Shown: one piece after another, positions 5,443 to 20,164 of the stretch | How the letters are laid out: each line of letters opens with the position of its first letter | Position numbering within the stretch: position 1 is the first letter of the stretch | Assembly: GCA_016198755.1 (NCBI GenBank) | Contig: JACQIB010000002.1 | Coordinates: 1 to 64,000 of the forward strand | Length of the DNA stretch: 64,000 bases | Direction: 5' to 3' | DNA from: Candidatus Aenigmatarchaeota archaeon | Lineage (GTDB): Archaea > Aenigmatarchaeota > Aenigmatarchaeia > Aenigmatarchaeales > JACQIB01 | Program-made: the position numbers and the translations under genes | The notes under the pieces: model-generated | Told to the model about the DNA's origin: nothing | The model's database searches: none | The model's input: only the letters and a program-made list of their open reading frames with translations

Positions 5443-6531
5443 CTAGTTCTGCACAAGCATGGTCCTGACTTTTGGTGTTAGAGCATACATAAAGGCCTTT
5501 CCGCGTGCTTCTCTCTGCACATACCCTTCTCTCATCAAACGCAGAAGAATATTGTTTAAAGAGCGCACAGCATGCTGTTTGCTTGCATATCCTTCCAAAT
5601 CAATGCCATCAACGATTGCAGTCGGAGTTAGCCAATCCTGTTTTGTAAGGGACTCTAGAATCTGGCGCTGTCTATAAGGAAGGTTCTTTATATCAGATTC
5701 TGATGGGGGTTTAGGTGAGAAAACAACTACTGGCTGGTCTAATTTTTCCTCGACTTCCGGAACTTCTCTGTATTCATCTATGTTTTTAGCTTCTATAATA
5801 TCATAGTTTTTCTCTACAGCATCATAAACTAACTTGTCACAAAACTTCATTACCTCGCGTGGGAAGCCTCCTGTACGCTGGTAAATAATATCTACTGCAG
5901 AATCTGTAAAGGGCTTTATGCCGGTTCCGCCCGCGGCTTCTATTCTTTTTTGTATAAGCTTTCTTGTATCTTCTTTTGATAAGGATGTTAATGTTATTCT
6001 GGAAGTTACCCTCTGATCAAGTGTTTGCAGCTCATCTCTCACTTTTTGCTCAAGACTTGGAAGGCCGGCAAGAATTAAGCTAACAGAATCTATCTGGTCT
6101 ACCAGAACGCGCAGCCACTCAAGCACATCCCTGTTTGTTTCATGTGCTTCATCCAGCAAAAACAATAATTGATTTCCTTTAAGGTTCTTGTTTATGTATA
6201 ATTGCAAATTGTAAAGATTTGGGGAGCGTTTCATTATTCTGTCCCATAAACCTATACCAAAAGTATCTGTAAAGATTGTTACAAGCTCCTCTGGGTTTGT
6301 TGGAGGCTTGCTGACATAGAGTTTGCTTATATTTTCAGAAGTGTTTGCTTCAAGCCACTTAAGCATTGTTGTCTTTCCAGAGCCTGTTGGACCTACTATA
6401 ATAGCTATTTTGTGCTTGCTTTCAATATGGTTTAGGGCTGCCTTTACCTGTTCTTCATAGCCTGTGAAAAGCTTTGGATCTATACGTAGAACGAATGGAT
6501 CTTCATTCCAGCCAAATTTTTGATAGTTCAT
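5443..6531 (-). CDS. ExeA/GspA-like AAA+ ATPase with C-terminal winged helix
   Basis: N-terminal FGWNEDPF, Walker A GPTGSGKT, Walker B LLDEAH, TGGFPRE; C-terminal wHTH LLRLMREGYVQREARGKAFMYALT. Confidence 0.85.
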   Translation of the reverse strand: MNYQKFGWNEDPFVLRIDPKLFTGYEEQVKAALNHIESKHKIAIIVGPTGSGKTTMLKWLEANTSENISKLYVSKPPTNPEELVTIFTDTFGIGLWDRIMKRSPNLYNLQLYINKNLKGNQLLFLLDEAHETNRDVLEWLRVLVDQIDSVSLILAGLPSLEQKVRDELQTLDQRVTSRITLTSLSKEDTRKLIQKRIEAAGGTGIKPFTDSAVDIIYQRTGGFPREVMKFCDKLVYDAVEKNYDIIEAKNIDEYREVPEVEEKLDQPVVVFSPKPPSESDIKNLPYRQRQILESLTKQDWLTPTAIVDGIDLEGYASKQHAVRSLNNILLRLMREGYVQREARGKAFMYALTPKVRTMLVQN

Positions 6532-6555
6532 TTCATCACTTTTGCTTGAAAATCG

Positions 6556-6934
6556 TTCATATGAAGGTTTTGTGAAGATAGTGTGAAGTTCACGTGAAGA
6601 TTTTGTTTGTAAATTATAGTTTCCATAGGAAATGGCCCCTTATTCTATATGAATAGCAACAATTTAAAGGTTTTGGAATGCCTTAATTGAGCATTATTAA
6701 TTTAGTATATATAAAGGCATCTATTTTTGTTTGAATTTTAACTTTTGTGAGAATTGTGGGAGTGAAGGTTGTGAATGTGGTGTGAAGTTCATCAAATCTT
6801 CACATAATCTTCACACCTTCACGTCATCTTCACGCGTGAAGATATGAACTTCACGTGAAGGTTTTATATATTGTTAATATATGTGAGCCTAAAAGTGCTA
6901 TATTCACGTGAATGTCACGTGAAGTTCACGTGAA
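6556..6934. repeat. Array of TTCAC/GTGAA boxes and TTCACGTGAA palindromes, many in 11-bp phase
   Basis: RTGAAG at 6561/6572/6583/6594; TCACGTGA at 6590, 6851, 6904, 6915, 6926; 18-bp perfect palindrome ATCTTCACGCGTGAAGAT at 6826-6843. Confidence 0.9.
6619..6635. promoter_or_regulatory. Mini-ORB-like Orc1/Cdc6 binding site candidate
   Basis: GTTTCCATAGGAAATGG resembles the TTCCAnnGGAAA ORB core, without a G-string. Confidence 0.45.
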
Positions 6935-6990
6935 CATACATTGGCTATCTAGGCGGATTTCTATCCGGTATAGAACACTCACGGATTAAA

Positions 6991-7007
6991 ATATAACAGT
7001 GTTATAT
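6991..7007. promoter_or_regulatory. Palindromic operator ATATAACAGTGTTATAT
   Basis: 17-bp palindrome with one central base; the same 15-mer (reverse complement) occurs twice in oriC at 17542 and 17641. Confidence 0.7.
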
Positions 7008-7041
7008 CAGATTTTAATACTTGGACAACAAATATGCTCTC

Positions 7042-7599
7042 ATGCGCCTCTTTATTGGAATTGCCTTGCCAGAAGAACTCAAACCGAAGGCTTTGGAGGT
7101 TCAGAAAGCACTCGGAAGCACTGGAGAAAAAATAAAGCTGGTTGAACCAGAAAATTTACATATAACAGTAAAGTTTTTAGGAGAGGTTGAAAAAGAGCGT
7201 TTAGACGGTATAAAGACTGTTTTAAGTTCTATATTGAAAAAAAGAAGTGTTTTTAGCCTTAAAATACATGGAATATCATATCTTCCCAATAAAAAGTTCC
7301 TTCGTACTGTGGCACTATCTGTACTTGATGAAAACAACATTTTAAAACAAATAGTGGATGATATAAACTCTTATTTGGCTAAAATAGGTATAAAAGATGA
7401 TGTAAGAGATTATAAAGCTCATTTAACACTTGCAAGAGTTAAAGGCACAAAAGATAGAATAAATATATTGCTATCTTTAATGTCATTTGAAGATATTGAT
7501 ATCGGGGAGGTTGAAGTTACTACCTTTGATCTTATGGAATCGATGTTAACAGAATCTGGACCTATATACAATAAAATAGCATCTTTTACTATAAAATAG
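7042..7599 (+). CDS. thpR: RNA 2',3'-cyclic phosphodiesterase / 2'-5' RNA ligase (2H family)
   Basis: MRLFIGI N-terminus; two HxT motifs (NLHITVKFLG, AHLTLAR). Confidence 0.92.
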   Translation: MRLFIGIALPEELKPKALEVQKALGSTGEKIKLVEPENLHITVKFLGEVEKERLDGIKTVLSSILKKRSVFSLKIHGISYLPNKKFLRTVALSVLDENNILKQIVDDINSYLAKIGIKDDVRDYKAHLTLARVKGTKDRINILLSLMSFEDIDIGEVEVTTFDLMESMLTESGPIYNKIASFTIK

Positions 7600-7826
7600 G
7601 TTATTTTTCTAAATAAAAGAACAAAAATACTCTATTTTGCATTATTAGTCCTAGAATCTATATAAAAGCATAATATTCATTGTTTCACTCATAAATAAAA
7701 GTATACTTTGAGAATAGACGAATTTAATATAATATAAGCTATTTTTAGAGCTATTTTTATATATAGTAAAGTTTTATTGCTTTAAAGCTTAAAATAACTT
7801 GTTTTAATATGTTTTTATAACTATAT

Positions 7827-8123
7827 CTACTTATTATTCTTTATAGATTTTTTAATACTATATAAGGAAAGGATTTTTTCAATAGTAACGTTCTTTTTGT
7901 CATCGGGGAGCTTAATGATCTTTGCTCTTAATCCAAACTGGTTTATAGTCCTTATTTCAACAAAATAGGACATATACGTCTTTATTATTGTAGAAACGCG
8001 CTCTGGATGTAGGTTTAGGGCTCTGGCAATACCTCTTATATGTATGCCAGTGTCTCCTGCTTCTTTTAAAACTTCAAGTATCTTATAAATATTTCTCTTG
8101 GTTTGTGGCTGAATTGGCTTCAT
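7827..8123 (-). CDS. Small basic winged-helix/HTH protein
   Basis: GIHIRGIARALNLHPERVSTII HTH; GGAGG site before ATG at 8123. Confidence 0.7.
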   Translation of the reverse strand: MKPIQPQTKRNIYKILEVLKEAGDTGIHIRGIARALNLHPERVSTIIKTYMSYFVEIRTINQFGLRAKIIKLPDDKKNVTIEKILSLYSIKKSIKNNK

Positions 8124-8195
8124 ATTAAACCTCCTTCTGAAACTACTGAAATATATAACATAATAAAACACTTGTCATATTATGTTTGGCAAACT

Positions 8196-9920
8196 TTAAA
8201 AGCCTGTGTTTTTCGCGGAATTGCGCAGGTTTGCAGCGATTCCACGTTTAAACTCTCTAACCTCTGAGCTTGTTAACAAAGCCTCACCAACAGCTACTAT
8301 TCTCTTTCCATATTTAATGGAAATCTGTTCTCCTGCAAAGATTTTGTCTTTTGGTATAGCAAACTTGGAAATCAAATCCTTTCCGGCAGCAATTAACTCT
8401 GCAACTTCCTTATCCTTTACTGCATAGCTCTTTATTTTACCTTTTAACAGCTCTGCACCAGCAATTGTTGGTATAAAGAAGCCGTCTGAAGGGCGCATTG
8501 TACCTAACAGTTCTTTCCCTCTCCAAATCCTTCTTATCCTTCCAGTATTCCTCGAAACCTCTATTTCAGCTTTCTTAAATCGCTTATCAGAACCAGAACC
8601 AAACTGATAATTTAATGTTGCTGAAAGCACTTCATTTGGTTTTGTTTTTACTCTGGGCTCAGAAAACCCAGGTATAAGAGACTGGCCAAATGGATAAACT
8701 GTTTTAAGCCCTACTGGGATTTTTCCGAATGGAGGTTTAATGAAGGATTTTCCGCAAACTCTATGTAGCCAGTCCTGCGCTCTTAGTACCTCAGGTCTCC
8801 AGTCAGACTCTTCCCCAAGCCATTGAAAAGCTGATTTTTTGGAGACTGGCTCAAAATTTAACAGCCACTTTCCATGAGTTTTCAAAACAAACCTTAACGC
8901 TTCCAATAAAGCTGGATGAGCTCTGCAGCGCTGTTGAACCAGTTCCCAGAGCCATTTTCCACGTATTGCTTCCCTGACAGTTTTTATCTCAGCGAGTGTT
9001 ATATTCAAATTGTGTATAGTCAGCATATTTTCCAGCTCTTGTTTTTCAAGAGATTTTAGCTCTAAAGCTGTTATTCCTGAACAAACTTTGCAGGAACATG
9101 GCAATTCAGATAGTTCTGAGACCGGTAAAGTACCTGAAACTGTCAAAAAAGCTGAACGGCGCGCAGCTAAACTGTACATTGCTGAATCAAAAAGATCACA
9201 GCCAATTGCTGCTAAAAGAGAGAAAAGCATTGGATGACCAGCACCAAATGCATGAACAGGCTTTCCAACAGGAAGGTTTTGCTTGCAAGTTATTATAATG
9301 TCAGCTAGTTCTGCAAACCTATACTGTTCCATTAACGGAACTATTCCCCCTATAGCAAACAGGTCTGGCTGTTCTTTTACAGTAAGCTTACAGGAGAGCC
9401 TTCTCAAATCAGTAAATTTACCTCCCTGTATAGGGCCCACAAGAAACCTTTCTCCAACAAGACTTCTTGCTTTTCCAAGCCTTTCAGCTGTTTCCAGAAC
9501 CTTTTTCCTTGCTTCTGATTTTGTATCTGTTAAAAGCACAAACCTGTCAAGTGGTGTAATAATTTCTGAACCAAGCTCCATTTGGGTTTTTATAGAAAGC
9601 TCCTGTGTCCATTCAGAACTTTCTGTGCTATGTGAAAACTGCTGAAAAGTACCAGAATCCGTGTAAATCAATCCTGGCCACTTAAAGTAGTTGTGTAAAC
9701 CTCCGGAAGTTTTTATGTCTGAAATGGTCTGTGAATTCCTGTTTATTATGTAGGCATTTGTTATTAGCAGGTTTGGCTTTGCTCCTATAACATCATCTAT
9801 TTTCAGGGTTTTAATATTGGGATTTACAACAACAGCTATCTCTGGGGTTTTGATTTTCTTTTTTCCAACTGTGAGCGAGCATAGCCTGCCTGCTGCATCC
9901 CTGTCTAAAAGTTCTAGCAT
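8196..9920 (-). CDS. tgtA: Archaeosine tRNA-guanine(15) transglycosylase (arcTGT)
   Basis: YTDSGTFQ, GPIQGG, HAFGAGHP, DLFDSA, CSCKVC Zn site, C-terminal PUA-like region. Confidence 0.93.
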   Translation of the reverse strand: MLELLDRDAAGRLCSLTVGKKKIKTPEIAVVVNPNIKTLKIDDVIGAKPNLLITNAYIINRNSQTISDIKTSGGLHNYFKWPGLIYTDSGTFQQFSHSTESSEWTQELSIKTQMELGSEIITPLDRFVLLTDTKSEARKKVLETAERLGKARSLVGERFLVGPIQGGKFTDLRRLSCKLTVKEQPDLFAIGGIVPLMEQYRFAELADIIITCKQNLPVGKPVHAFGAGHPMLFSLLAAIGCDLFDSAMYSLAARRSAFLTVSGTLPVSELSELPCSCKVCSGITALELKSLEKQELENMLTIHNLNITLAEIKTVREAIRGKWLWELVQQRCRAHPALLEALRFVLKTHGKWLLNFEPVSKKSAFQWLGEESDWRPEVLRAQDWLHRVCGKSFIKPPFGKIPVGLKTVYPFGQSLIPGFSEPRVKTKPNEVLSATLNYQFGSGSDKRFKKAEIEVSRNTGRIRRIWRGKELLGTMRPSDGFFIPTIAGAELLKGKIKSYAVKDKEVAELIAAGKDLISKFAIPKDKIFAGEQISIKYGKRIVAVGEALLTSSEVREFKRGIAANLRNSAKNTGF

Positions 9921-9969
9921 CCCTAATCTTTACACTAGTTATTTAAAGAATGCGCTGTTAAGGGGGGAG

Positions 9970-11244
9970 ATGGAGGAACTTGTTATTGTACTTCCAAGCG
10001 GGAAGTGTGAATGGGGAGGCTGTGTATTTTGCGGCTGGGGTAGGATGAAAGCCAAACAAAAAACCATAAGGGAGCTTAAAGAGTTTTTTGATAGCAAATT
10101 AAAGGGTTTAAAAGCGGGGGAACTGGAGAGGTTAAAAGTTTTCTGCTCTGGCTGTTTTTTAGATCCTAAGCAGGTTGTGCCTGCTTTCCGCAGTTATCTT
10201 GTAAGAAAGTGCGAACAGCTGTGTATAAAGAGCCTTATCGTAGAGAGTTTTCCTAAGTTTATAACAGATGAGAACCTGGAAAACATGAGAAGCAATAAAG
10301 TAAAGATTTTAGCTGGTATCGGGCTGGAAGTTGCTGATGATGCAGCGCTGAAAAGAATAAATAAGGGGTTTACTTTAGAGGAGTTTGAAAAGGCTTCAGA
10401 AGTCTGCAAACGAAATGGCTGGGGTATAAGGGCGTATTTGCTCGTTAACTGTCCTGGAGCTGAGAATCTCCTGAAAAAGAGTGTGGAATACGCGAAAAAG
10501 TGGTCGGAAGAGGTTATATTGATTAACTGCCTGCCGCATTATGCTGCTCCAATAATGCAGTTTTATGTGACTGGAAAGTGGAAACCATTTAATGAAAAGG
10601 AGTTTATAGAAGCCACGAAAGAATTTGATGTAGAAAAGGATTTTCAAAATTTTTCATTCCGCCCTATGTTTCCGGATTTTATGAGAGAAAAGATACGCGG
10701 AGCCGGAGAAAAACAACTTTTGCATCCGCATTTCAGAATTTGGCAGGAATTTTTCAGGGATTTCTATAAACCTAAAAAAGATAAGGATATTTTGCTTTTT
10801 GTACCATGCTCTTTCAGGAAACCTTACACTGCTTCACATTTACATAAAGCAATTGATCCGGTTTTAACTGAAAATATACAGAGAGTTGTTGTAAGTACGC
10901 CCGGTGTGGTTCCGATAGAATACTGTAATGATTACCCGTTTAACAGTTATGATTGGCCTGAATGGGAAGAAACAAAGGAAATAAAGCAAAAGTATATTGA
11001 CGTTACTGAAAAGAGAGTTGAAGATTTCCTTCGGGCCCATGCTGCACATTATAAAAAAATACTTTGTTACTTAAAGCCTGACACTGAAAGTTTCAAAGCT
11101 GTTATGCTGGCAGCTGAAAAGCTGGGAATTAAGGTTGAAAGCTGCATTAGGGAAGAAGTTTATGAGAGTTTTAAGGATGAAAAGAACCCTCTTGCACACC
11201 CTTTGGCTGTGAAAGAACTTGAAAGGGTTGTTAAGAAGCTTTAG
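9970..11244 (+). CDS. Radical SAM (RaSEA/TIGR01210-like) domain fused to an ArcS-type (DUF5591-like) domain
   Basis: CEWGGCVFC cluster motif and GLEVADD...RINKG in the N-half; LLFVPCSFRKPYTASHLH and PFNSYDW in the C-half; divergent from arcTGT. Confidence 0.8.
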   Translation: MEELVIVLPSGKCEWGGCVFCGWGRMKAKQKTIRELKEFFDSKLKGLKAGELERLKVFCSGCFLDPKQVVPAFRSYLVRKCEQLCIKSLIVESFPKFITDENLENMRSNKVKILAGIGLEVADDAALKRINKGFTLEEFEKASEVCKRNGWGIRAYLLVNCPGAENLLKKSVEYAKKWSEEVILINCLPHYAAPIMQFYVTGKWKPFNEKEFIEATKEFDVEKDFQNFSFRPMFPDFMREKIRGAGEKQLLHPHFRIWQEFFRDFYKPKKDKDILLFVPCSFRKPYTASHLHKAIDPVLTENIQRVVVSTPGVVPIEYCNDYPFNSYDWPEWEETKEIKQKYIDVTEKRVEDFLRAHAAHYKKILCYLKPDTESFKAVMLAAEKLGIKVESCIREEVYESFKDEKNPLAHPLAVKELERVVKKL

Positions 11245-12592
11245 CAACAACATCCATGTTATCGAATTTTATATAGGGAAGAACAGCTGCTTCTGTAAGA
11301 CCTGTTGGAAACGGACTTGAAATAAATGTTTCCTTTGAGATTCCTGTTATCTTTTTTATAGCTTCGTATACAGAACCCACAACATTTCCCCATCTTACTG
11401 GTTCTGCAAGCTCGCCGTTCTTTATAGCAAAAGCATTGCGAATTTCCAGAGAAAATACTCCATTAGCAGAAGAACCGCGTGGCCATGCAACCTTTTCCAA
11501 GAGCAGTCCTTTCTTTGTTTCTGCTATTATTTTCTCCAGTGGAAGCTTGCCTGCTTGTACAACAATATTTGTATTTGTAACTGTGGGATTGAAAATAAAG
11601 TATTCGTCATAAGAAATTCCGCCGCGGCGGCCATTGCCTGTTGTTTTTTTGCCTGCTTTTGCACCGTATTTGCTGTCGAAAATAAAGTTTTTTAGTATTC
11701 CATTTTGTATAAGTGGGGTTTTTTGTGATGCTGTGCCTTCCTGATCTATACCGGTTGTTGCAACCCCAGCAGGATATGTTCCGTCATCGTATAGTGTAAA
11801 CTCCTTGGAAGCAACCTGCTTTCCTAGCTTGTCAAAATATGGTGTAGCTTTCATAAGAACAGTATTTCCTGACAGAGCTTCGCCCAGAGTTGTTGCAAAG
11901 AGTTCTGCCATTACCTTAGGGGAAATAATGACAGGATACTTTCCAACATCCACGGTTTTTGGATTTAGAGAACTTTGTATAAAGTTAATGGATTCGTTGG
12001 CTATTTTCTCTGGAGAGAATTGGGACAGCATTCTGAAACGTTCCATTGGTTCATATTCTATTATTCTTCCTTCATGTTTTTTAACAAGATTGGAATAGAA
12101 AAGTACGAATGTTCCATTCTCTGTCTTTTCAAGCCCTGTGCTGTTAGATACAGTATAAGAGAATGAAGTAAATTTCAGCCTGCCAAATGCTATATCAACT
12201 CCTTTCTCCTTCAACGCAGAAGTAAACCTCTTTGCTATTTCCAGCGCTTCTGGTTCTGAGATTTCAGCTATTTTGGGGTCAAAGGTATTTTTTACAGGTG
12301 TAGAACCTTTTTTGGAGGGAAAGGAAAATCCTTTTGGAATATCATCTCCAAATTTTGAGACTTTGGAAGCTGTCTCTATTACAGAATTTATTCCGTTATC
12401 TGAAAAATCATTCCCATAGGAAAAACCAAACTTTCCGTCTTTTACAACCCTTACAGCAAATCCTGATGTCTCCCCCCGCAGAATATTTGTTACTTTGTCT
12501 TTTTCTATGAAAAGATTAAGGTTTTTTGTGGTTGAAAGGAAGGTTTCCGCTGAGTCTGTTTTTCCTATTGCCAGTTTCAGAATTTTGTCCAC
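11231..12592 (-). CDS. pmbA: TldE/PmbA family protein
   Basis: TldD/PmbA fold motifs (DQEGT...LIQNGILKNF...TGNG); lacks HExxxH; follows tldD. Confidence 0.9.
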   Translation of the reverse strand: MDKILKLAIGKTDSAETFLSTTKNLNLFIEKDKVTNILRGETSGFAVRVVKDGKFGFSYGNDFSDNGINSVIETASKVSKFGDDIPKGFSFPSKKGSTPVKNTFDPKIAEISEPEALEIAKRFTSALKEKGVDIAFGRLKFTSFSYTVSNSTGLEKTENGTFVLFYSNLVKKHEGRIIEYEPMERFRMLSQFSPEKIANESINFIQSSLNPKTVDVGKYPVIISPKVMAELFATTLGEALSGNTVLMKATPYFDKLGKQVASKEFTLYDDGTYPAGVATTGIDQEGTASQKTPLIQNGILKNFIFDSKYGAKAGKKTTGNGRRGGISYDEYFIFNPTVTNTNIVVQAGKLPLEKIIAETKKGLLLEKVAWPRGSSANGVFSLEIRNAFAIKNGELAEPVRWGNVVGSVYEAIKKITGISKETFISSPFPTGLTEAAVLPYIKFDNMDVVAKAS

Positions 12593-13963
12593 TTAATCTC
12601 CCCCAACCAAAATCTTATCTATTCTCAAATGCGGACCCCCTGTTCCTGAAGGCACCCAATCCTCATGTCCCTTTCCGCATGCACCGGGGCTTGTTTCAAA
12701 ATCATTTGAAACTCCGGAAACAAGCTTTAGTATTTCAAGAACCTGAGAACCTGAAAGTACAATCTCGCCGCGTATTGGCTTTGTCAGTTCCCCATTCTCT
12801 ATCCAATAACCCATTGCACCGGAGACATAGAAACCTCCGCCTGCAGGATCTTCCATACCGCAGACATTTTTTATTATATACACTCCTTTTTTAATTCCCT
12901 CAAAAAGCTCTTCTGTTTTCATTTTACCTGGCTCAAAGAAAATGTTTGACATGCGCACGAAAACTTTCTTTCCAAACCCCTGCATTCTTCCATTTCCTGT
13001 TGATTCTGTTCCAAAGCGCAGAGCTGTTTCAACACTGTGCAAATGGCTTGAAAGTACTCCATCTTTAACCAAACCTGTTCTCTTTGCTAATGTTCCGTCA
13101 TGATCAAAAAAGTAAAAGCCTGAACTGGGAATTGTTGGTGTATCTGTTATGCTCACGAGAGGAGAAGCTATCTTTTCCCCTAATCTTCCGGCTAAAAATG
13201 AACGGCCATTTATTACAAAATCAGCTTCTGATGGGTGACCTATGCTCTCATGTGCTAACACACCGGCAAATGTTCCATCCAAAACAACTGGATAGTTTCC
13301 TTTTGGTGAAGCGCCTGCAGAGAGCTGTTCTATAGTCTTTTCCACGATATTGTCTGAAAATTCACCTATAGCATTCTTTGTTACTTCATATCCAACAGCT
13401 CCTCCTAGGCTGTCGTAAAAATCAACCATATTGTTCCCTTTTTTAGCAATTGTAAAAAGAAGTATTCTTGCCCGTTTCAGTGATTGTTCCATGTAACTGC
13501 CATTGGAATCAGCATAAACATGTTTTGTTGTGCCGTCTGAATAGCCTGCACGTATAGAAAGTATTTTCTTGTTTTTTGCTGCCGAAAACAGTTCGTTTAC
13601 AAAACCAACCTTTTCCTCAACTGAAACAGAATCCGGATCTGTTTTAATTGGGGTTGTAAATGTTTTTTTCAGTGATGGACGCTCAGGAAAAGATAGATTT
13701 CCTTTCTGGGAATTTGCTGCTTTCAGTGCGTTTGAAAGAGCTGTTAGAAGGTCTTTTTTCTCGAATGAATTTGTAAAACCGTATCCTATGCTTCCGTTTG
13801 CAAAAACCCTGAGAGAAACTCCTGAAAGAGAGTTCTGTTCAACTGTTTTGTCTATATTTGTTTTTGAAACAGATGTAGATTTGTTATTGAATATATTGGC
13901 ATCTGCGAATGTGGCTCCCTTATCCAAAGACAGTTGTAAGACTTTGAAAAGCAGGTCTTCCAT
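12593..13963 (-). CDS. tldD: TldD metalloprotease
   Basis: AHESIGHPSEAD metal motif; GACGKG...GGPHLRI C-terminus. Confidence 0.93.
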   Translation of the reverse strand: MEDLLFKVLQLSLDKGATFADANIFNNKSTSVSKTNIDKTVEQNSLSGVSLRVFANGSIGYGFTNSFEKKDLLTALSNALKAANSQKGNLSFPERPSLKKTFTTPIKTDPDSVSVEEKVGFVNELFSAAKNKKILSIRAGYSDGTTKHVYADSNGSYMEQSLKRARILLFTIAKKGNNMVDFYDSLGGAVGYEVTKNAIGEFSDNIVEKTIEQLSAGASPKGNYPVVLDGTFAGVLAHESIGHPSEADFVINGRSFLAGRLGEKIASPLVSITDTPTIPSSGFYFFDHDGTLAKRTGLVKDGVLSSHLHSVETALRFGTESTGNGRMQGFGKKVFVRMSNIFFEPGKMKTEELFEGIKKGVYIIKNVCGMEDPAGGGFYVSGAMGYWIENGELTKPIRGEIVLSGSQVLEILKLVSGVSNDFETSPGACGKGHEDWVPSGTGGPHLRIDKILVGGD

Positions 13964-13994
13964 CCTCTTAGGCTGGATCCTGAACTTAAAAAGC

Positions 13995-15200
13995 CTATTC
14001 CTGCAGGTCTTTTGTAAGCAAAACGCTCATAGACTCAGGAACTGACAATCTTGGCGCTGAACGCATGCCTATTATCCATTTTACCCCATGCTGGCTTGAA
14101 AAGCTCAGCAGTTTTTGATCAATTTCGCCGTCAAAAATCAGGGTTTCTGGCTTTATGTCTCTCATAGCATTGAACATTTCGCGCACAGGAACTTTTCCAA
14201 GCACGTTTCCTTCGGAATCCAATAGACATGCAGCACGTGTACCTGTTATTTCATTTACTATTTCCCTGAAAAATGCTGCTTTGTCTGGCTCTATAGATAC
14301 CTTTGGAAGCTGTGCTGGTTCTTGCCTTTCTATGTGTTCCGGGCGTTCAGTGTGCTCAACGCGCCTTTCACGTTTTTCAGCTGAAATTTCTTTTGCCTGA
14401 TTAAGCGGAACGCGTTCGCGCAGGGCTTTGAAAATCTCTTTCTTTGTTAATTCCTCTACTTCCTTTTCCTCAGGAGCGCGTGCTACAAAATCAACTTCTG
14501 CAACAGCTGTCAACTCCCTTAGTATAAGATCCCCACCCCTGTCTCCATCGAGGAATGCTGTTATTTCTTTTTCTTTTGCTAAATCAGCTACTTGTGGAGG
14601 TACAGATGTTCCCTCTATTGCAACCACGTTCTTTATTCCGCATCTTAATAGGTTGACAACATCTGCCCTGCCCTCTACAATGACAACATTGTCTGACTGG
14701 TTTACTGCTGGACCAGCCGGCAGACCTCTCCACTGAACAACTTCAGCAGACCGTATTGATTCCTTTATTTGATCTGTCATCTCTTGGGTTTCCATTGTGT
14801 CCTGGAACATTTTACCTAAGAGCTCTTTTGCACGCTCAATAACATATTTCCTCTTGGAAGCCCTTACATCTTCTATATTTTCTACTATAATTTTGGCGTT
14901 GCATGGACCAACTCTTTCTATGGTTTCTATGCAGGCTGCTATCAGGGCTGTTTCAGAACTATCAAGAGATGAAGGAATCGATATCTCACCTGATGCTTTG
15001 CCTGTTTTCATAACAAGCTCTACATCAATTCTTCCTATCCTCCCTGTTTTCTGAAGCTCCCTTAAATCCATATCCTGCCCTAACAACCCTTCAGTCTGTC
15101 CAAATAGAGCTCCAATAACGTCTGGTTTTTCTACTGTTCCCTCTGAATTGAATTTTGCTATTATTGTGTATTTTGAAGTTGACTGAGCTAGTTTTCCCAT
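13995..15200 (-). CDS. dnaG: Archaeal DnaG (TOPRIM; exosome-associated)
   Basis: VEKPDVIGALFGQTEGLLG, VVIVEGRADV, FLDGDRGG. Confidence 0.96.
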   Translation of the reverse strand: MGKLAQSTSKYTIIAKFNSEGTVEKPDVIGALFGQTEGLLGQDMDLRELQKTGRIGRIDVELVMKTGKASGEISIPSSLDSSETALIAACIETIERVGPCNAKIIVENIEDVRASKRKYVIERAKELLGKMFQDTMETQEMTDQIKESIRSAEVVQWRGLPAGPAVNQSDNVVIVEGRADVVNLLRCGIKNVVAIEGTSVPPQVADLAKEKEITAFLDGDRGGDLILRELTAVAEVDFVARAPEEKEVEELTKKEIFKALRERVPLNQAKEISAEKRERRVEHTERPEHIERQEPAQLPKVSIEPDKAAFFREIVNEITGTRAACLLDSEGNVLGKVPVREMFNAMRDIKPETLIFDGEIDQKLLSFSSQHGVKWIIGMRSAPRLSVPESMSVLLTKDLQE

Positions 15201-15236
15201 TATTATAACCTCCTTTTTGTATATTTTTATTTTATA

Positions 15237-15377
15237 GAAAAAGACTTACTACAGCTGGTATTCCTGAACTAAAGTGCTGTTAAATCAGCACATTTTCCAT
15301 TGCATACCCGTGTGAAACTTAATGAGCATGATGCTGTTTTCCCGAACTCCGGAACATACAGCTAGCAAGTCCTTTTC
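15237..15377 (-). ncRNA. Candidate structured RNA (dnaG leader or stand-alone sRNA), family unknown
   Basis: Long closing stem plus two internal hairpins; several mismatches resolve as G-U only on the minus strand; TATA-like CTTTAAAAAG ~25 nt upstream. Confidence 0.55.
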
Positions 15378-15426
15378 CTTTCCTATAGTTGCAAAGCAAC
15401 CTTTTTAAAGCTTCTGTCTCTGTGAA

Positions 15427-15978
15427 TCAAACACCAGAAGCTTCTTCCACACAAGTAGTACATACCCACTGATCGTTCACGTTCTTTAGCTCTTCTGAGA
15501 AATTGTTGCAAAGTTCGCACTCGCCTTGGGTTGGATTTTCTGAGAGATTTGAAGAATCATCCTTCATTAGCAGGCGCTCGCGCAGGATTTCTATAAGTGT
15601 TGGTGCAACTTTTAAAACTTCCCTGTCAGAAATAAGACCTACCAGCTTACCCATGGAAACCACTGGCAAACGCTCAAATCCATGCTTAACCATTGTGCGG
15701 GCTGCTGTTGACAGGTCTTCATCTGGGCTGCACATAACAACAGGAAAACTCATTATGTCCTTTAGTTTTATGGAAGATGGAAGTTTGTTTAGTGCTGTTA
15801 TTTTATTTACGATATCCTCTCTTGTTACAATTCCAACCGGTTTTTTGCTTTCCATAATAACAAGCATACCAACATCTTCTTCCTTCATTATTTTAGATCC
15901 CTGTTCAGCAGAATCAGACTGGTTTGCGGTTGCAACGCGGGAAATCATTGCATCCTTGACTTTGATGCCGGTTACCAT
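15427..15978 (-). CDS. CBS-pair protein with C-terminal Zn ribbon
   Basis: Two CBS repeats (VGIVTREDI, LVGLISDREV); CELC...CTTC. Confidence 0.9.
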   Translation of the reverse strand: MVTGIKVKDAMISRVATANQSDSAEQGSKIMKEEDVGMLVIMESKKPVGIVTREDIVNKITALNKLPSSIKLKDIMSFPVVMCSPDEDLSTAARTMVKHGFERLPVVSMGKLVGLISDREVLKVAPTLIEILRERLLMKDDSSNLSENPTQGECELCNNFSEELKNVNDQWVCTTCVEEASGV

Positions 15979-16020
15979 GTTTAAGTATTGGTGTGTAGAG
16001 TATAAATTGATTGCTGGAGA

Positions 16021-16734
16021 ATGAGACTTATGGGAGAAAATGTGGGATTTTTAAGAAAACTGTACAGGAAACTGCTTTATAGTGATTTGGACAAGGTTTA
16101 TAAGAGTTTTTTCTCTGCTGAGCAGAAACCTAAAAATAGAATGAAATTTTTAGATGTTGGTGCTGGTTTTGGGTTTGAAGTTATTAAACGCGGAAGAGAA
16201 GGATATTTTTCCGTTGGACTTGAATTTTTGCAGGAAAGAGCAGTAAAAACGTTGGGGGAATTCAGAAAAAGAAATGCAAATGGATTTGTTATTGTTGGGG
16301 ATGCACAGGATCTGCCTTTTAGGGAAGGGGTGTTTGATTTGATAAACTGCAACCATGTTATAGAACATGTTCCTGAAGATAGCAGAACTTTAGGTGAATT
16401 GAGCAGGGTTTTAAACAAAAAGGGGAAGCTTTTGTTAGCTGTTCCAAACGTAAAAAACCTTTATACTGCTTTTAGGAGCTTTTTGGGATTGAAAAACAGG
16501 TTCACAGATTCTACACACCTCAGAGAATATGAAGAAAATGAGTTAAGAAGGCTTATAGAGACAGCTGGGTTCAAGATTGAGGATTTGAAAAGAGTTGGTT
16601 TTAATCCTCCTATAGGGCTTAAGGTTGAGCTTTTGCTTGCACACTATATGCCAATAGATAAGGCGTTAAACAGCTTTGTTAGAATTTTCCCTAAAAGAGC
16701 TGCTGAATTCAGGGTTAAAGCCGGACATCGTTAA
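16021..16734 (+). CDS. Class I SAM-dependent methyltransferase
   Basis: FLDVGAGFG; LPFREGVFDLINCNHVIEHV. Confidence 0.87.
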   Translation: MRLMGENVGFLRKLYRKLLYSDLDKVYKSFFSAEQKPKNRMKFLDVGAGFGFEVIKRGREGYFSVGLEFLQERAVKTLGEFRKRNANGFVIVGDAQDLPFREGVFDLINCNHVIEHVPEDSRTLGELSRVLNKKGKLLLAVPNVKNLYTAFRSFLGLKNRFTDSTHLREYEENELRRLIETAGFKIEDLKRVGFNPPIGLKVELLLAHYMPIDKALNSFVRIFPKRAAEFRVKAGHR

Positions 16735-16755
16735 ATATATAAATGCAGTACGACA

Positions 16756-17493
16756 ATGTGGTGGATGATTGAGGTTGAGACTTTAGCTAAGGAAAGTGTT
16801 GGTAAAAGGATAGCAGGAGAGATTGTTCTAAGTCCGGATGCTGGTAAAACCATACAAAAATGGAGAAATATGTTTAAAATACCTCAAAGAATGTTAGCTG
16901 AAGAGATGAAGGTAATGCCTTCTGTTATTAGTGATTATGAAAACAGTAGGAGAAAAAGCCCTGGGATAAAGGTAATAAAGAGGATTGTGGATGCACTTAT
17001 CTCTATAGATGAGAAGAATGGGGGAAAGATTATAAAGGAGTTTTCAGAATTCCCTGCTAGGGCTGTGTTATCAGAAGCTGTAATAGATTTGAAGGAATTT
17101 TCATCTACAATGACAGTAAAGGAGTTTTGCAAGTCTATTGGAGCAAATGTTGTTGCAAGATCTGATTTAGCTGAAGGGAAAATACATGGTTATACGGTTA
17201 TTAACAGTATGAAGGCTATTATTGAGCTTCCTCCAACAGAACTTGTTAAATTGTATGGATTAACCAGTGAAAGAGCTCTGATCTTTACTGGAGCACATAG
17301 AGGAAGGAGTAGTATGGTGGCTTTGAAGGTTACAAACTTAAGGCCTGGAGTTGTTGTTTTACATGGTGTTAGTGGAGATGGGGTTGATGAACTTGCAAAA
17401 AGAATTGCAGAAATTGAAGGAATTCCATTGGCTTCTATAAAAGGTGGGGATTTAGACGAACTCATAAAGTCATTAAAATCTATATCTGCTTAG
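16756..17493 (+). CDS. XRE-type HTH transcription regulator (COG1709-like)
   Basis: IAGEIVLS...KWRNMF...SVISDYENSRRKSPG; GRSSMVALKV; start uncertain. Confidence 0.85.
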   Translation: MWWMIEVETLAKESVGKRIAGEIVLSPDAGKTIQKWRNMFKIPQRMLAEEMKVMPSVISDYENSRRKSPGIKVIKRIVDALISIDEKNGGKIIKEFSEFPARAVLSEAVIDLKEFSSTMTVKEFCKSIGANVVARSDLAEGKIHGYTVINSMKAIIELPPTELVKLYGLTSERALIFTGAHRGRSSMVALKVTNLRPGVVVLHGVSGDGVDELAKRIAEIEGIPLASIKGGDLDELIKSLKSISA

Positions 17494-17882
17494 ACTCCCC
17501 CCTTTAATTCTACTGGAAATGAGGTCTTTTATTATATTTAGTATAACACTGTTATATGAAGTAAAGGTTCTCTGCTGCAGAAATATAAAGATTTAAAAAC
17601 AATATCCATAAGAAACCATGGCGGGGGCAAAAACAATCAATATAACACTGTTATATTCCAGTTCACACACCAAAATATGAAGTAAATAGCTTCACATAAC
17701 CTTCATTAATGTTCACAAATAGAAAAATCGATTAAACCCCTCCGTTTCCAATGAAAACCATCAAAAACAGAACCCCCTTGTTTCACATGGAAATTTATAT
17801 ACCTTCATTTCCAATCCAGTTGTTCACGTTTGGTTAAGGTTAAATATGTTCACGTACTGGAATCATTGCACTAGAAATTGAG
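17494..17882. other. Replication origin oriC upstream of cdc6
   Basis: ORB-like elements with G-strings: 17497-17520 (-, ATTTCCAGTAGAATTAAAGGGGGG), 17605-17627 (+), 17737-17757 (-), 17773-17794 (-); AT-rich intervals between them. Confidence 0.88.
17542..17657. repeat. Two copies of palindrome TATAACACTGTTATA inside oriC
   Basis: Exact copies at 17542-17556 and 17641-17655; the second extends to 19 bp, 17639-17657. Confidence 0.85.
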
Positions 17883-17891
17883 GTGATTCCA

Positions 17892-19088
17892 ATGCCAGAG
17901 CTACAACAAATATTCAATCAATTTATTGAATCAAAACCAATCTTTGCAAACAGATCAATATTGTCTCTTTCCTTTACACCAATAACAATACCACATAGGG
18001 AAAATGAGATAGAAGGCCTAGGTAGAATCTTAGCTCCTGCATTAAAGGGAGGTAAACCAAGCAATGTATTTGTATACGGAAAGACAGGAACAGGCAAAAC
18101 CCTTGTTTCTAAGTATGTTACTGAAGAGCTAGAGAAAGCATCAAAAACAACAAACCAAAAGCTCAAGACAGTTTACATAAACTGTAAGTTAAGACATTCA
18201 GCTGACACGGAGTATAGGCTTTTAGCCTATATAATAAAGGAACTGGGGGGCGATGTACCCTTTACAGGACTTCCAACAGACAAGATATTCTCAACTTTCT
18301 ATGAGTTTGTTGAACGTGAATCACAATGCCTTATCCTTATAATAGATGAAATAGACTCTTTGATTAAAAAGACAGGAGACGGGGTTCTATACAGCCTTAC
18401 AAGAATGAATCAGGACCTAAAGAAGTCAAAAATATGCATTATAGGCATCACAAATGACCTGTCTTTTATAGAAACACTTGATCCAAGGGTAAGATCTTCC
18501 CTGAATGAAGAGGAAATTGTATTTTCTCCATATAATGCTTTCCAGCTGCAGGAAATACTCAGGCAGAGGGCAAATATAGCGTTTCCAAACAGTTCAATGG
18601 AAGCAGGCGTAATAGAAAAGTGTTCTGGTTTGGCAGCTCAGGAACATGGAGATGCACGCAGAGCACTTGATCTGTTAAGGGTTGCAGCAGAGATAGCTGA
18701 AAGGAGAGGGGAACCTGTAATAAAAATTTCCAATGTGGATGAAGCACAGGAAAAGATAGATACAGACAGGGTTACAGAAGCTGTTAAGATGCAGCCGCGT
18801 CAATCACAGGCTGTTTTGAACTCTTTAATGGAAGCTTCAGCAGGAAAAAAAGATGTGGAAACCGGAGACGTTTTTGAAAAATACACAAACTTCTGTTCTA
18901 TCCATCACATAAAACCCTTAACTCACAGAAGAATTTCAGACTTAATTGCAGAGCTTGAGCTCTTTGGAATAATAAGCTCAAAGGTGGTTTCTAAAGGGAG
19001 ATATGGCAGGACACGAGTTATTTCCCTTTCCATAAACGATGAGATAAAAGTAAAGGTGCAGACTATCCTAAAGGAAAGCTTTGGTTAA
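17892..19088 (+). CDS. cdc6: Orc1/Cdc6 replication initiator
   Basis: GKTGTGKT, IIDEID, LDPRVRSSL, HGDARRALDLLR, C-terminal wHTH SKGRYGRTR; GAGGTGA ribosome-binding site. Confidence 0.97.
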   Translation: MPELQQIFNQFIESKPIFANRSILSLSFTPITIPHRENEIEGLGRILAPALKGGKPSNVFVYGKTGTGKTLVSKYVTEELEKASKTTNQKLKTVYINCKLRHSADTEYRLLAYIIKELGGDVPFTGLPTDKIFSTFYEFVERESQCLILIIDEIDSLIKKTGDGVLYSLTRMNQDLKKSKICIIGITNDLSFIETLDPRVRSSLNEEEIVFSPYNAFQLQEILRQRANIAFPNSSMEAGVIEKCSGLAAQEHGDARRALDLLRVAAEIAERRGEPVIKISNVDEAQEKIDTDRVTEAVKMQPRQSQAVLNSLMEASAGKKDVETGDVFEKYTNFCSIHHIKPLTHRRISDLIAELELFGIISSKVVSKGRYGRTRVISLSINDEIKVKVQTILKESFG

Positions 19089-19097
19089 GGAGCTGTT

Positions 19098-20081
19098 ATG
19101 TCCAACATAGAAAGGCTTACAAAAGCAGGCATTTTAACAGACCCAGGCGTTGCTGAATTAGTTGAAAAACTATCTGAAAAACAGCTGGACTTTTTTATAA
19201 AATCAAAAAACAAGCCCCTAATCTTACAAAAAATTCATTTCAAATCATTTCAGCCAAAAATTGAAATAAAAACAGACATGGAAAAGAGGAAAAGTATACA
19301 GGATTTTATAAATATTCTAAACTCACGTTTTTCCCTCTTACAAAGAATACTAATGTCAAAATCAAAGGACAGCAACTTAGTTTCAATAAAAAGCGCTTCT
19401 GAAGGGAACATTTCCATTATAGGACTGATAAAAACCATATCGGAAAATAATGGAATTTTCAGGACAGAACTCGAAGATCAAACAGGCACAATAAAAGCTT
19501 CTGTCCCCAAAAATTTACCCGGAAAATTTGAAAGGTTTTTTCTGGATGAAGTTGTGCAGATTTCCGGAAGATTTTCATCAGGAGTTTTATACGCAGAAAA
19601 AATAGAATGGCCTGATATACAGTTAACAGAATATAAAAAACCAGACACAACTTCAACAGTCTTTATCTGTTTTTCCTCCTCTATTATTACACTTCCGGAA
19701 AAGGCAGATTCCTGCAATATTATAATATCAAACCAGCCTGTCCAAGCCACATTTCAGCAGGCAATAACTATAACCAACACATCCGCAGCCAAAATAAATG
19801 GCATAAATTTACTTTTCTATATGGAAAATGTAAAGGAAACAACTGATAAATTCAGCATAACAGAAAAAGAGTTTATTTTAGAATGTTTAAAGCGAAGGCA
19901 CTTCCTCAAGGAACCCTGCCTCCAATCAGGAATAATAGAAGAACAACCAGATTATTTCATTTTTCAAACACAAACACCTTTCACAGATTCCTACAGAGGA
20001 ACTATGATAATAGGTCTGCCAAAAGAAACATTTTGTTTACTTGATTTTGTTGACAGAAGTGCAGAATTCGGTACAATATAA
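19098..20081 (+). CDS. Degenerate DNA polymerase D small subunit (DP1)-like / B-subunit-like protein
   Basis: OB fold (IIGLIKTI...ELEDQTGTI), remnants CLKRRHF and IIEEQPDYF; position after cdc6; phosphoesterase metal motifs absent; only 327 aa. Confidence 0.72.
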   Translation: MSNIERLTKAGILTDPGVAELVEKLSEKQLDFFIKSKNKPLILQKIHFKSFQPKIEIKTDMEKRKSIQDFINILNSRFSLLQRILMSKSKDSNLVSIKSASEGNISIIGLIKTISENNGIFRTELEDQTGTIKASVPKNLPGKFERFFLDEVVQISGRFSSGVLYAEKIEWPDIQLTEYKKPDTTSTVFICFSSSIITLPEKADSCNIIISNQPVQATFQQAITITNTSAAKINGINLLFYMENVKETTDKFSITEKEFILECLKRRHFLKEPCLQSGIIEEQPDYFIFQTQTPFTDSYRGTMIIGLPKETFCLLDFVDRSAEFGTI

Positions 20082-20164
20082 GAAAAAATACCCTACACTG
20101 GAGGATAGAAAACCTCTTAAATAGTTTTCAACACCTATATTCGTCAGCTTCTTTGGTGGGGAAC

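Follow-up and report, generated by a model that had tools for sequence, protein, structure and literature searches.

The locus described here comprises an ATPase gene (5443–6531, minus strand), the adjoining stretch 6532–7020, which is free of open reading frames (ORFs), and a cdc6-linked replication origin (17494–17882). It lies in a window, that is, the whole stretch of 64,000 nucleotides analyzed, at the start of contig C6 in a metagenome-assembled genome of an archaeon of the phylum Aenigmatarchaeota (DPANN), the name that homologs of its proteins bear. The assembly (G000 in our set) holds 0.89 Mb on six contigs and is 89% complete, and the DNA occurs in groundwater metagenomes (five DNA runs of two studies, four of which are possible sources of it). 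ORF-free DNA accounts for 6.2% of this genome, and among its 579 ORF-free stretches the 489 bp of 6532–7020 rank eleventh in length. For comparison, we used 41 relatives and a phylum sample of 301 genomes. Our main result is that 5443–8123 is a three-part module conserved in Aenigmatarchaeota, consisting of the ATPase, an array of short boxes lying on one face of the DNA helix, and a small winged helix-turn-helix (wHTH) protein (Table 1). An Rfam scan of 1–24000 at E values up to 1 gave no matches, so no known RNA accounts for the region, and a PADLOC scan for defence systems returned weak P-loop matches only. Cumulative GC skew was noisy on all six contigs, without long monotonic arms, and was therefore not used for placing origins.

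Table 1. Features of the module, of the cdc6-linked origin, and of the palindrome copies in the genome (positions in the window, except where a contig is given)
Feature	Position	Strand	Remarks
ExeA-clade AAA+ ATPase gene with C-terminal winged helix, 362 aa	5443–6531	-	Assigned from Pfam, TIGR03015, AlphaFold2 model, and fold search
Promoter-proximal box cluster	6572–6599		GTGAAG at 6572, 6583, and 6594 (11-bp steps); TTCACGTGAA at 6589
Box-free spacer	6600–6761		73% A+T; ORB-like TTCCATAGGAAA at 6621
Distal box cluster	6762–6934		Two converging box runs; TTCACGTGAA at 6850, 6903, and 6925; GTCACGTGAA at 6914
15-bp palindrome TATAACAGTGTTATA	6992–7006		Just upstream of the TATA-like TTTTAATA of the LigT gene
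LigT-type 2',5' RNA ligase/phosphoesterase gene	7021–7599	+	Divergent from the ATPase gene; family match
Small wHTH protein gene	7827–8123	-	98 aa from ATG at 8123; conserved partner gene of the ATPase
cdc6-linked oriC	17494–17882		Palindromes at 17542 and 17641; TTCAC/TTCAT boxes at 17662, 17691, 17702, and 17712
TTCACGT boxes	17823, 17849		Bracket the TATA-like TTAAATAT (17840–17847) of cdc6
Orc1/Cdc6 initiator gene	17883–19088	+	Probable ATG at 17892; Cdc6_C 2.2e-24 (85.7 bits), Cdc6_lid 7.1e-23 (80.7 bits)
Palindrome copies in the window	6992–7006, 17542–17556, 17641–17655		Perfect matches
Other palindrome copies in the genome	C1:58823, C3:183425, C3:239762, C5:24038, C5:52767, C5:98181, C6:69627, C6:108047		Perfect matches

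The ATPase carries a Walker A motif (GPTGSGKT), a Walker B motif (LDEAHE), a sensor-2-like GGFPRE, and a recognition helix, HAVRSLNNIL. It matched Pfam AAA_22 (8.3e-15, 55.7 bits, above the gathering score of 27), and residues 4–253 matched the ExeA-like model TIGR03015 at 8.5e-31 with 107.4 bits, which is well under the equivalog cut-off of 324.5. Lower-ranked homologs, about 30% identical over residues 1–250 and 500–780 aa long, fit bacterial ExeA-type proteins, and the structural matches in the Atlas include bacterial ExeA-like models with a peptidoglycan-binding domain, backing the ExeA-type reading. The AlphaFold2 model (pLDDT 84.7) consists of an AAA+ base, a lid, a disordered linker (255–271), and a winged helix. 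Foldseek searches with this model gave E values of 1.4e-12 to 1w5t and 3.4e-12 to 2qby, and VIA gave Z scores of 19.4 to Drosophila Cdc6 (7jgr_G) and of 19.1–17.1 to archaeal Cdc6/Orc1 (1fnn, 1w5t, 2qby, and 2v1u), in alignments covering the full length (315–325 residues across AAA+ base, lid, and winged helix). The predicted fold is therefore in keeping with the Orc1/Cdc6 layout that a first-pass annotation of this DNA, made from its letters, had ascribed to the protein. Its AAA+ part is equally like TnsC (7plh) and MuB (8xvc), both with Z 17.9 and a root-mean-square deviation of 3.6–3.7 Å, so that the model is most like Cdc6/Orc1 over its full length and just as close to TnsC and MuB in its AAA+ part; by sequence, ExeA-type proteins are closest, and MuB is the best match in the PDB (2.4e-4). 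Cdc6_C (PF09079) and Cdc6_lid (PF22703) were not found in the ATPase at E values up to 0.01, and the ORC-CDC6-like model gave a 30-residue P-loop match alone (20.6 bits, under the cut-off of 27).

The gene is single copy in this genome and was present in 37 of the 41 relatives (48–67% identity) and in 204 of the 301 genomes of the phylum sample, indicating a core, vertically inherited gene and not a mobile one. Across the class, the protein is 40–70% identical, with conserved neighbours and position, and composition is unremarkable. Walker A, Walker B, the conserved arginines, and the recognition helix (H320, R323, S324, N326, and N327) were invariant in 25 homologs. Neighbouring genes encode LigT, small wHTH, nucleotide-kinase-like, PRC-barrel, and OB-fold proteins, none of them a secretion protein. 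Clustering of homologs with secretion or pilus genes, which the first-pass annotation had named as evidence against an origin-linked system, did not occur: among the annotated neighbours at related loci, no secretion, pilus, or exopolysaccharide genes clustered with ATPase homologs. A LigT gene stands divergent to the ATPase gene in 8 of 19 related loci, probably as a bystander. Clear ATPase orthologs also sit on contigs labelled Aminicenantia bacterium, Nanoarchaeota, or Nanohaloarchaea (L088, L099, L101, and L154), which are probably binning or labelling errors, and Atlas look-alikes of the ATPase in Woesearchaeota, Nitrososphaerota, and Thermoplasmatota are leads only.

The second part of the module is the box array. 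Counted over the 520 bp that precede the ATPase gene, its two clusters comprise 19 TTCAC/GTGAA boxes, against 1.44 per kb genome-wide. The array spans about 365 bp, 11 kb from oriC, and its repeat unit is close to TTCACGTGAAc; the length of the spacer between the clusters is not conserved among relatives. CTTCAC/GTGAAG hexamers occur 37 times in the window, 13 of them within 6572–6924, making the array the best 400-bp window of the whole genome (13 hexamers; next best 3; genome mean 0.3 per kb). All four genomic copies of the decamer TTCACGTGAA and all seven phased pairs of the form TTCAC-N6-TTCAC fall inside the array. Only two 120-bp windows elsewhere reach four boxes each; both fall within long ORFs, and we regard them as chance. 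The boxes at 6.5–7.0 kb that the first-pass annotation had pointed out thus form a very strong cluster, and in the genome-wide scan it proposed, clustering of GTGAAG, of the decamer, and of phased pairs was confined to the array. Its motif positions were also accurate (CTTCACATAA at 6798 and 17690; TGTTCACGT at 17821 and 17847; the palindrome at 6992, 17542, and 17641).

The array is inherited together with the ATPase. All 20 loci examined had a box cluster upstream of the ATPase ortholog; in one, an inserted ORF has moved it away from the gene, and in another a contig end truncates it. The 18 full arrays hold 16–28 TTCAC/GTGAA boxes within 520 bp, extending from about −20/−64 to −386/−509 relative to the gene start. 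Five ATPase-positive genomes from five families had phased pairs clustered solely beside the ATPase gene, with 1–3 scattered pairs per genome otherwise (one scattered pair lies upstream of cdc6 in G002), and five ATPase-negative genomes had 0–2 scattered pairs, the control level. All five decamers of a further relative (G010) adjoin its ATPase gene. Both genomes of family f8 (G013 and G018) gave no ATPase match and no intergenic array; the decamer has no copy in G013 and four scattered copies in G018, the two examined being in or beside coding sequence. Compact loci also exist, in lineages that have the ATPase and only 5–9 boxes, including versions with 7. At three loci (L013 of G037, L087, and L088), an extra ORF stands between the ATPase gene and the array, which is shifted upstream by about 0.8 kb or more.

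Box spacing in the 18 arrays is strictly periodic. Distances between boxes on the same strand peak at 11 (108 pairs), 21–22, 32–33, 43, and 53–54 bp, with nearly empty troughs at 14–16 (1 pair), 25–28 (4 pairs), and 35–38 bp (0 pairs), and distances between inverted boxes peak at 5, 16, 26–27, and 37 bp. With a register of about 10.7 bp, every box faces the same side of the helix for at least five turns. No conserved AT-rich gap was found in the arrays, the longest box-free gap measuring 46–219 bp with an A+T content no higher than its surroundings.

Boxes placed around the TATA element of the ATPase gene are the one feature shared by every lineage examined. In relatives with large arrays, boxes flank the transcription factor B recognition element (BRE) and TATA, often with two TTCACGTGAA palindromes; at compact loci, TATA is preceded by two TTCAC boxes and followed by four or five of the form RTGAA. 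The TTCAC core is invariant, as is the recognition helix of the ATPase, and lineages with Asn in place of His320 have no large array. Three or more phased pairs accompany 35 of 49 His320-type ATPases and none of the 11 Asn-type ATPases, at whose loci TTCACGTGAA is likewise missing (0 of 11); Asn-type promoters carry 3.7 ATGAA vs. 1.0 GTGAA per locus, His-type promoters 1.3 vs. 1.9. This tally covers 78 of 80 loci (two N-terminally cut sequences were dropped), of which 15 could not be classified by the pattern and 3 were set aside for their short upstream sequence. Because the two changes covary, we favour the ATPase as the reader of the boxes.

The third part is the small wHTH gene. Of the 73 genomes with it and the ATPase gene on one contig, 69 have the two no more than 3.5 kb apart, and in 39 the wHTH gene is upstream with the same orientation, so that the suspicion in the first-pass annotation that a nearby small wHTH gene matters was borne out. 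It often stands across the array from the ATPase gene (divergent in 11 of 19 related loci; tandem upstream in G131). The family is found in 256 of the 301 genomes, including families without the ATPase (f16, 50/58; f19, 16/17), and is missing in f8 as well. With a mean column identity of 52% and five invariant columns, the protein is far less conserved than the TTCAC core. Two further putative wHTH proteins are encoded near the start of the window, at 182–541 (119 aa) and 760–1101 (113 aa), with weak HTH matches and no BLAST relation to the 98-aa partner.

Next, we consider the link to cdc6, which is present in 38 of the 41 relatives. ORF-free DNA of this genome contains 14 TTCACGT/ACGTGAA sites, of which 10 are in the array, 2 at the cdc6 TATA, and 2 elsewhere, so that, apart from the array, no non-coding locus but the cdc6 promoter has two such sites. 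Among 30 relatives of the order, the region upstream of cdc6 carries 7.1 boxes per kb vs. 1.7 per kb in the flanks, with TTCACGT in 20 of the 30 and phased pairs in 11 of the 30 vs. none in 108.9 kb of flank, and these boxes show an 11-bp distance peak. The oriC also contains four elements with C/G strings that we take to be like origin recognition boxes (ORBs), going by the ORB consensus (at about 17497–17521, 17605–17627, 17737–17759, and 17773–17794). In G018, the only relative that has cdc6 and no ATPase, oriC keeps the ORBs and the palindrome and has no TTCAC/GTGAA. ATPase and cdc6 share a contig in 56 of the 115 genomes listing both, lie within 40 kb of each other in 55 of these 56 (median 15.6 kb), and are divergent in 51; the distance varies from 3.7 to 34 kb, with linkage and orientation kept. 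The boxes proposed for oriC in the first-pass annotation are thus real, as seen in the TTCACGT pair at the cdc6 TATA and in the 20 order relatives, but they are weaker than the array and mostly missing in other families.

To the right of cdc6, the window encodes a short DP1-like protein (19098–20081, 327 aa; PolD small-subunit models at 1e-20 over residues 54–190) and a PolB with a Cys-rich C-terminal tail (20153–22846, 897 aa). This gene set fits the arrangement published for Aenigmatarchaeota, with DP1 kept, DP2 lost, and a PolB that has a DP2-derived C-terminus (PMC12680538).

Two further motif families had been proposed in the first-pass annotation to join the array region to oriC, and neither holds up as such a link. 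The 15-bp palindrome is a real motif, with 3 matches in the window vs. 0.29 expected (0 of 100 shuffles reached 3), but it is not specific to the two loci. The genome holds 11 perfect copies of TATAACASTGTTATA on four of its six contigs, mostly in short intergenic gaps, two of them adjoining tRNA genes. Judged by eye from translations, the flanking genes belong to unrelated types (surface proteins, a glycosyltransferase, Trm1-like, Rieske, and HTH proteins), and a palindrome regulon, which we looked for, could not be named from them. A relaxed form, ATAAC-N3-4-GTTAT, is present upstream of cdc6 in 27 of 30 genomes of the order, in 4 of 5 genomes of other orders, and in 14 of 25 genomes of other families. 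The palindrome is therefore a conserved origin motif that is also dispersed genome-wide, and since it persists in G018, where both the ATPase and the small wHTH gene are missing, it is probably the site of another factor, global or origin-associated. Outside the window, at C6:107656–108054, the annotated start of a 132-aa HTH gene is overlapped by a palindrome copy, which precedes an internal Met by about 20 bp; this autoregulated-repressor layout makes its product a candidate reader of the palindrome. The ORB-type core is weak. The pattern TTCCANNNGAAA gave 5 matches in the window vs. 1.57 expected, a count reached by 1 of 100 shuffles; as written it fits only one of the four oriC ORBs, and a loose core was present in 3 of 18 orthologous arrays, at differing places. 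The core at 6621 is thus neither beyond chance nor conserved.

We tentatively favour, at somewhat less than even confidence, a reading in which the ATPase is a putative autoregulated AAA+/wHTH protein that forms polymers along the phased array and, in this order, additionally occupies the cdc6 promoter. The protein would read the boxes through its own winged helix, and, as boxes bracket the TATA of its own gene, we propose that it regulates itself. Where the boxes have multiplied, as in the 19 over about 365 bp here, it may assemble into a lateral polymer with a protomer or dimer at each helical turn, and the outcome would be an extensive nucleoprotein complex that depends on ATP, at 11 kb from oriC. 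The same boxes around the cdc6 TATA within oriC suggest that, in this genome and order, it probably also controls initiator synthesis or origin use, and the array could act as an origin-proximal sink that is doubled soon after initiation, like datA for DnaA. A larger claim, that an ExeA-clade AAA+ protein polymerising on the array constitutes a new chromosome-maintenance system, serving as a partition centromere or as a titration timer of cdc6 and origin firing, is possible, and we hold it as doubtful. Neither an AAA+ partition centromere nor an array-based titration timer has been described in archaea, and in the main texts, as distinct from the supplements, of the literature on Aenigmatarchaeota and DPANN origins, Cdc6, ExeA-type ATPases, and archaeal segregation, we found no description of the module.

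Several observations weigh against the autoregulated, polymerising ATPase favoured here. The genomes compared are kin, and the samples are accordingly not independent; the conserved proximity of ATPase and cdc6 could be inherited gene order, and it has exceptions, with 58 kb between the genes in G091, 294 kb in G307 (which has no array), and 197 kb for the array-bearing copy of G276. In other families, TTCACGT occurs within 400 bp upstream of cdc6 in only 3 of 25 genomes (9 families) and, among the large-array genomes of that set (four or more phased pairs), in 2 of 10; the cdc6 target is therefore lineage-restricted, and the array and its origin proximity are wider. The ATPase is retained at loci with 5–9 boxes, and a large array is thus dispensable for its core function. 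One or a few evolutionary events probably account for the His/Asn covariation, and in family f12 few boxes go with the His type; the neighbouring small wHTH protein is an equally placed candidate reader.

One of these exceptions deserves description in its own right. G276, a single-contig relative, has two ATPase paralogs (C1:255484–256512 and 461468–462580): one is Asn-type, has few boxes, and is found 8 kb from cdc6; the other is His-type, has a large array (about 25 boxes, six TTCACGTGAA), and is 197 kb away from it. Assembly chimerism is possible; the layout recommends this genome as a natural test for mapping origins.

Among the alternatives, a centromere-like partition cassette, in which the array is an origin-proximal centromere and operator, the small wHTH protein an adaptor, and the AAA+ protein the NTPase, seems unlikely to us, even though much of the layout fits it. 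Genes for an NTPase and a small DNA-binding protein share one cassette with a repeat array (within 3.5 kb in 69 of 73 genomes), each genome has a single array, and the helically registered boxes flank a promoter. In the same way, the phased 11-bp repeats of R1 parC flank a promoter, and parC doubles as the ParR operator. Origin proximity is class-wide, also where cdc6 is without boxes, and TTCACGTGAA equals the central 10 bp of bacterial parS, 12 of the 15 papers listed for the decamer, out of 43, being on ParB/parS or related chromosome organisation. Many lineages, however, keep both genes with 5–9 boxes only; the small wHTH family is common in ATPase-less families (f16 and f19); a ParB N-terminal domain (ParB_N, PF02195) had no match in this 89% complete genome at E values up to 0.01; and we know of no partition motor that is an AAA+ protein of this clade.

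Similarly improbable is an ordinary autoregulated transcription factor, with the ATPase-wHTH or the small wHTH protein repressing the intergenic promoters, the large array being an expanded operator and the closeness to oriC inherited. Sulfolobus Orc1-2, an AAA+/wHTH protein of the Orc1/Cdc6 type, acts as a transcription regulator and provides a precedent; boxes bracket TATA in every lineage, including the compact 7-box versions, and those at cdc6 are missing in most other families. Such an operator would nonetheless need far less than 16–28 strictly phased boxes over 400–470 bp in a genome that is 6.2% ORF-free; linkage to cdc6 and orientation persist although the distance varies from 3.7 to 34 kb, and no locus of this genome besides cdc6 resembles a regulon member.

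We give still less weight to the small wHTH protein as the box reader, with the ATPase as loader, remodeller, or effector whose own winged helix serves another purpose. In many loci the array separates this gene from the ATPase gene (a divergent arrangement in 11 of 19), and family f8 has neither gene, but the small wHTH family reaches far wider than the boxes (five f16/f19 genomes are without box clusters), is much less conserved than the invariant TTCAC core, and leaves aside the His/Asn change in the ATPase helix that tracks the change from GTGAA to ATGAA.

The possibility raised by the first-pass annotation that 6.5–7.0 kb is a second replication origin has been weakened and now appears very unlikely. 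An ExeA-clade initiator would melt DNA beside the phased boxes, as DnaA does at oriC; the predicted Orc1/Cdc6-like layout, an initiator-like gene adjoining a site array (the usual archaeal arrangement for an initiator gene and its sites), and two converging box arrays with an 11-bp step, like the converging low-affinity DnaA sites of Escherichia coli oriC with the same step, would be in line with this. We disfavour it because neither a conserved AT-rich unwinding gap nor conserved ORBs are found in the array; moreover, a second origin would be redundant at 4–34 kb from the first, the gene is kept in array-poor lineages, and the Cdc6_C/Cdc6_lid signature was not found in the ATPase. Finally, a mobile-element remnant, with a TniB/TnsC/MuB-type ATPase and boxes as transposase sites at an element end, agrees with the AAA_22 match, a fold as close to TnsC/MuB as to Cdc6, and the MuB sequence match (2.4e-4), but is scarcely credible for a single-copy gene, 40–70% identical across the class, with conserved neighbours and position, unremarkable composition, and no transposase-like ORF seen among its annotated neighbours.

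Set against known systems, the favoured AAA+/wHTH autoregulator shares parts with several and coincides with none. Like Orc1/Cdc6, it has an AAA+ base, a lid, and a C-terminal winged helix, and its gene adjoins a presumed site array; it differs in belonging to the AAA_22/ExeA clade by sequence, in having boxes of 5–10 bp, TTCAC(GTGAA), on a lattice of about 10.7 bp instead of ORBs, and in standing 11 kb from a canonical cdc6 with ORBs of its own. DnaA has phased box arrays, boxes in the dnaA promoter, and the titration locus datA. As in that system, an AAA+ protein with a DNA-binding domain is here combined with many short converging sites about one turn apart, presumed autoregulation, and an origin-proximal cluster, but there is no sequence relation, the target in oriC would be the cdc6 promoter and not an unwinding element, and titration is conjectural here.

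Repeat-type centromeres and partition systems are exemplified by ParR-parC of plasmid R1, archaeal AspA/pNOB8, and SegAB. The module resembles the parC/ParR type in its helically phased short repeats on both sides of BRE/TATA and in the small DNA-binding protein and NTPase encoded alongside, but its NTPase is an AAA+ protein with its own winged helix, and not of the actin, tubulin, or ParA type, and the module is chromosomal and vertically inherited. As for ParB-parS, the decamer matches the centre of the parS consensus and both lie near the origin, but the module has a dense array of dozens of half-sites in place of a few dispersed 16-mers. Two ParA/MinD-like AAA_31 genes lie elsewhere in the genome, and, with no ParB found in it, the match between TTCACGTGAA and the parS core is probably convergent. 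The ATPases of ExeA/GspA and of XrtA/PEP-CTERM systems (COG3267-type, AAA_22) are the closest sequence relatives of residues 1–255, but the protein described here has a winged helix in place of the peptidoglycan-binding domain and no secretion or exopolysaccharide context. MuB, TnsC, and TniB superpose in the AAA+ part, and their ATP-dependent polymerisation on DNA is the behaviour that we propose for the ATPase; they are sequence-nonspecific and work with transposases, unlike the ATPase, whose winged helix is predicted to be specific and whose place on the chromosome is fixed.

Timing of initiation and chromosome segregation are largely open in archaea, and for DPANN the picture is almost blank. 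The module, which is conserved and origin-proximal in the class and of which we found no published description, offers a handle testable in vitro: a 362-aa protein with an invariant recognition helix, a box of 5–10 bp on a strict helical lattice, one array per genome, and, in this order, a putative second target at the cdc6 promoter. The analysis also sets apart from it the 15-bp palindrome, a conserved origin motif that is unrelated to the module and calls for its own explanation. Collectively, these observations indicate that an architecture like that of Orc1/Cdc6, as predicted from the structural model, arises in a different AAA+ clade, which bears on the evolution of sequence-specific AAA+ DNA-binding machines.

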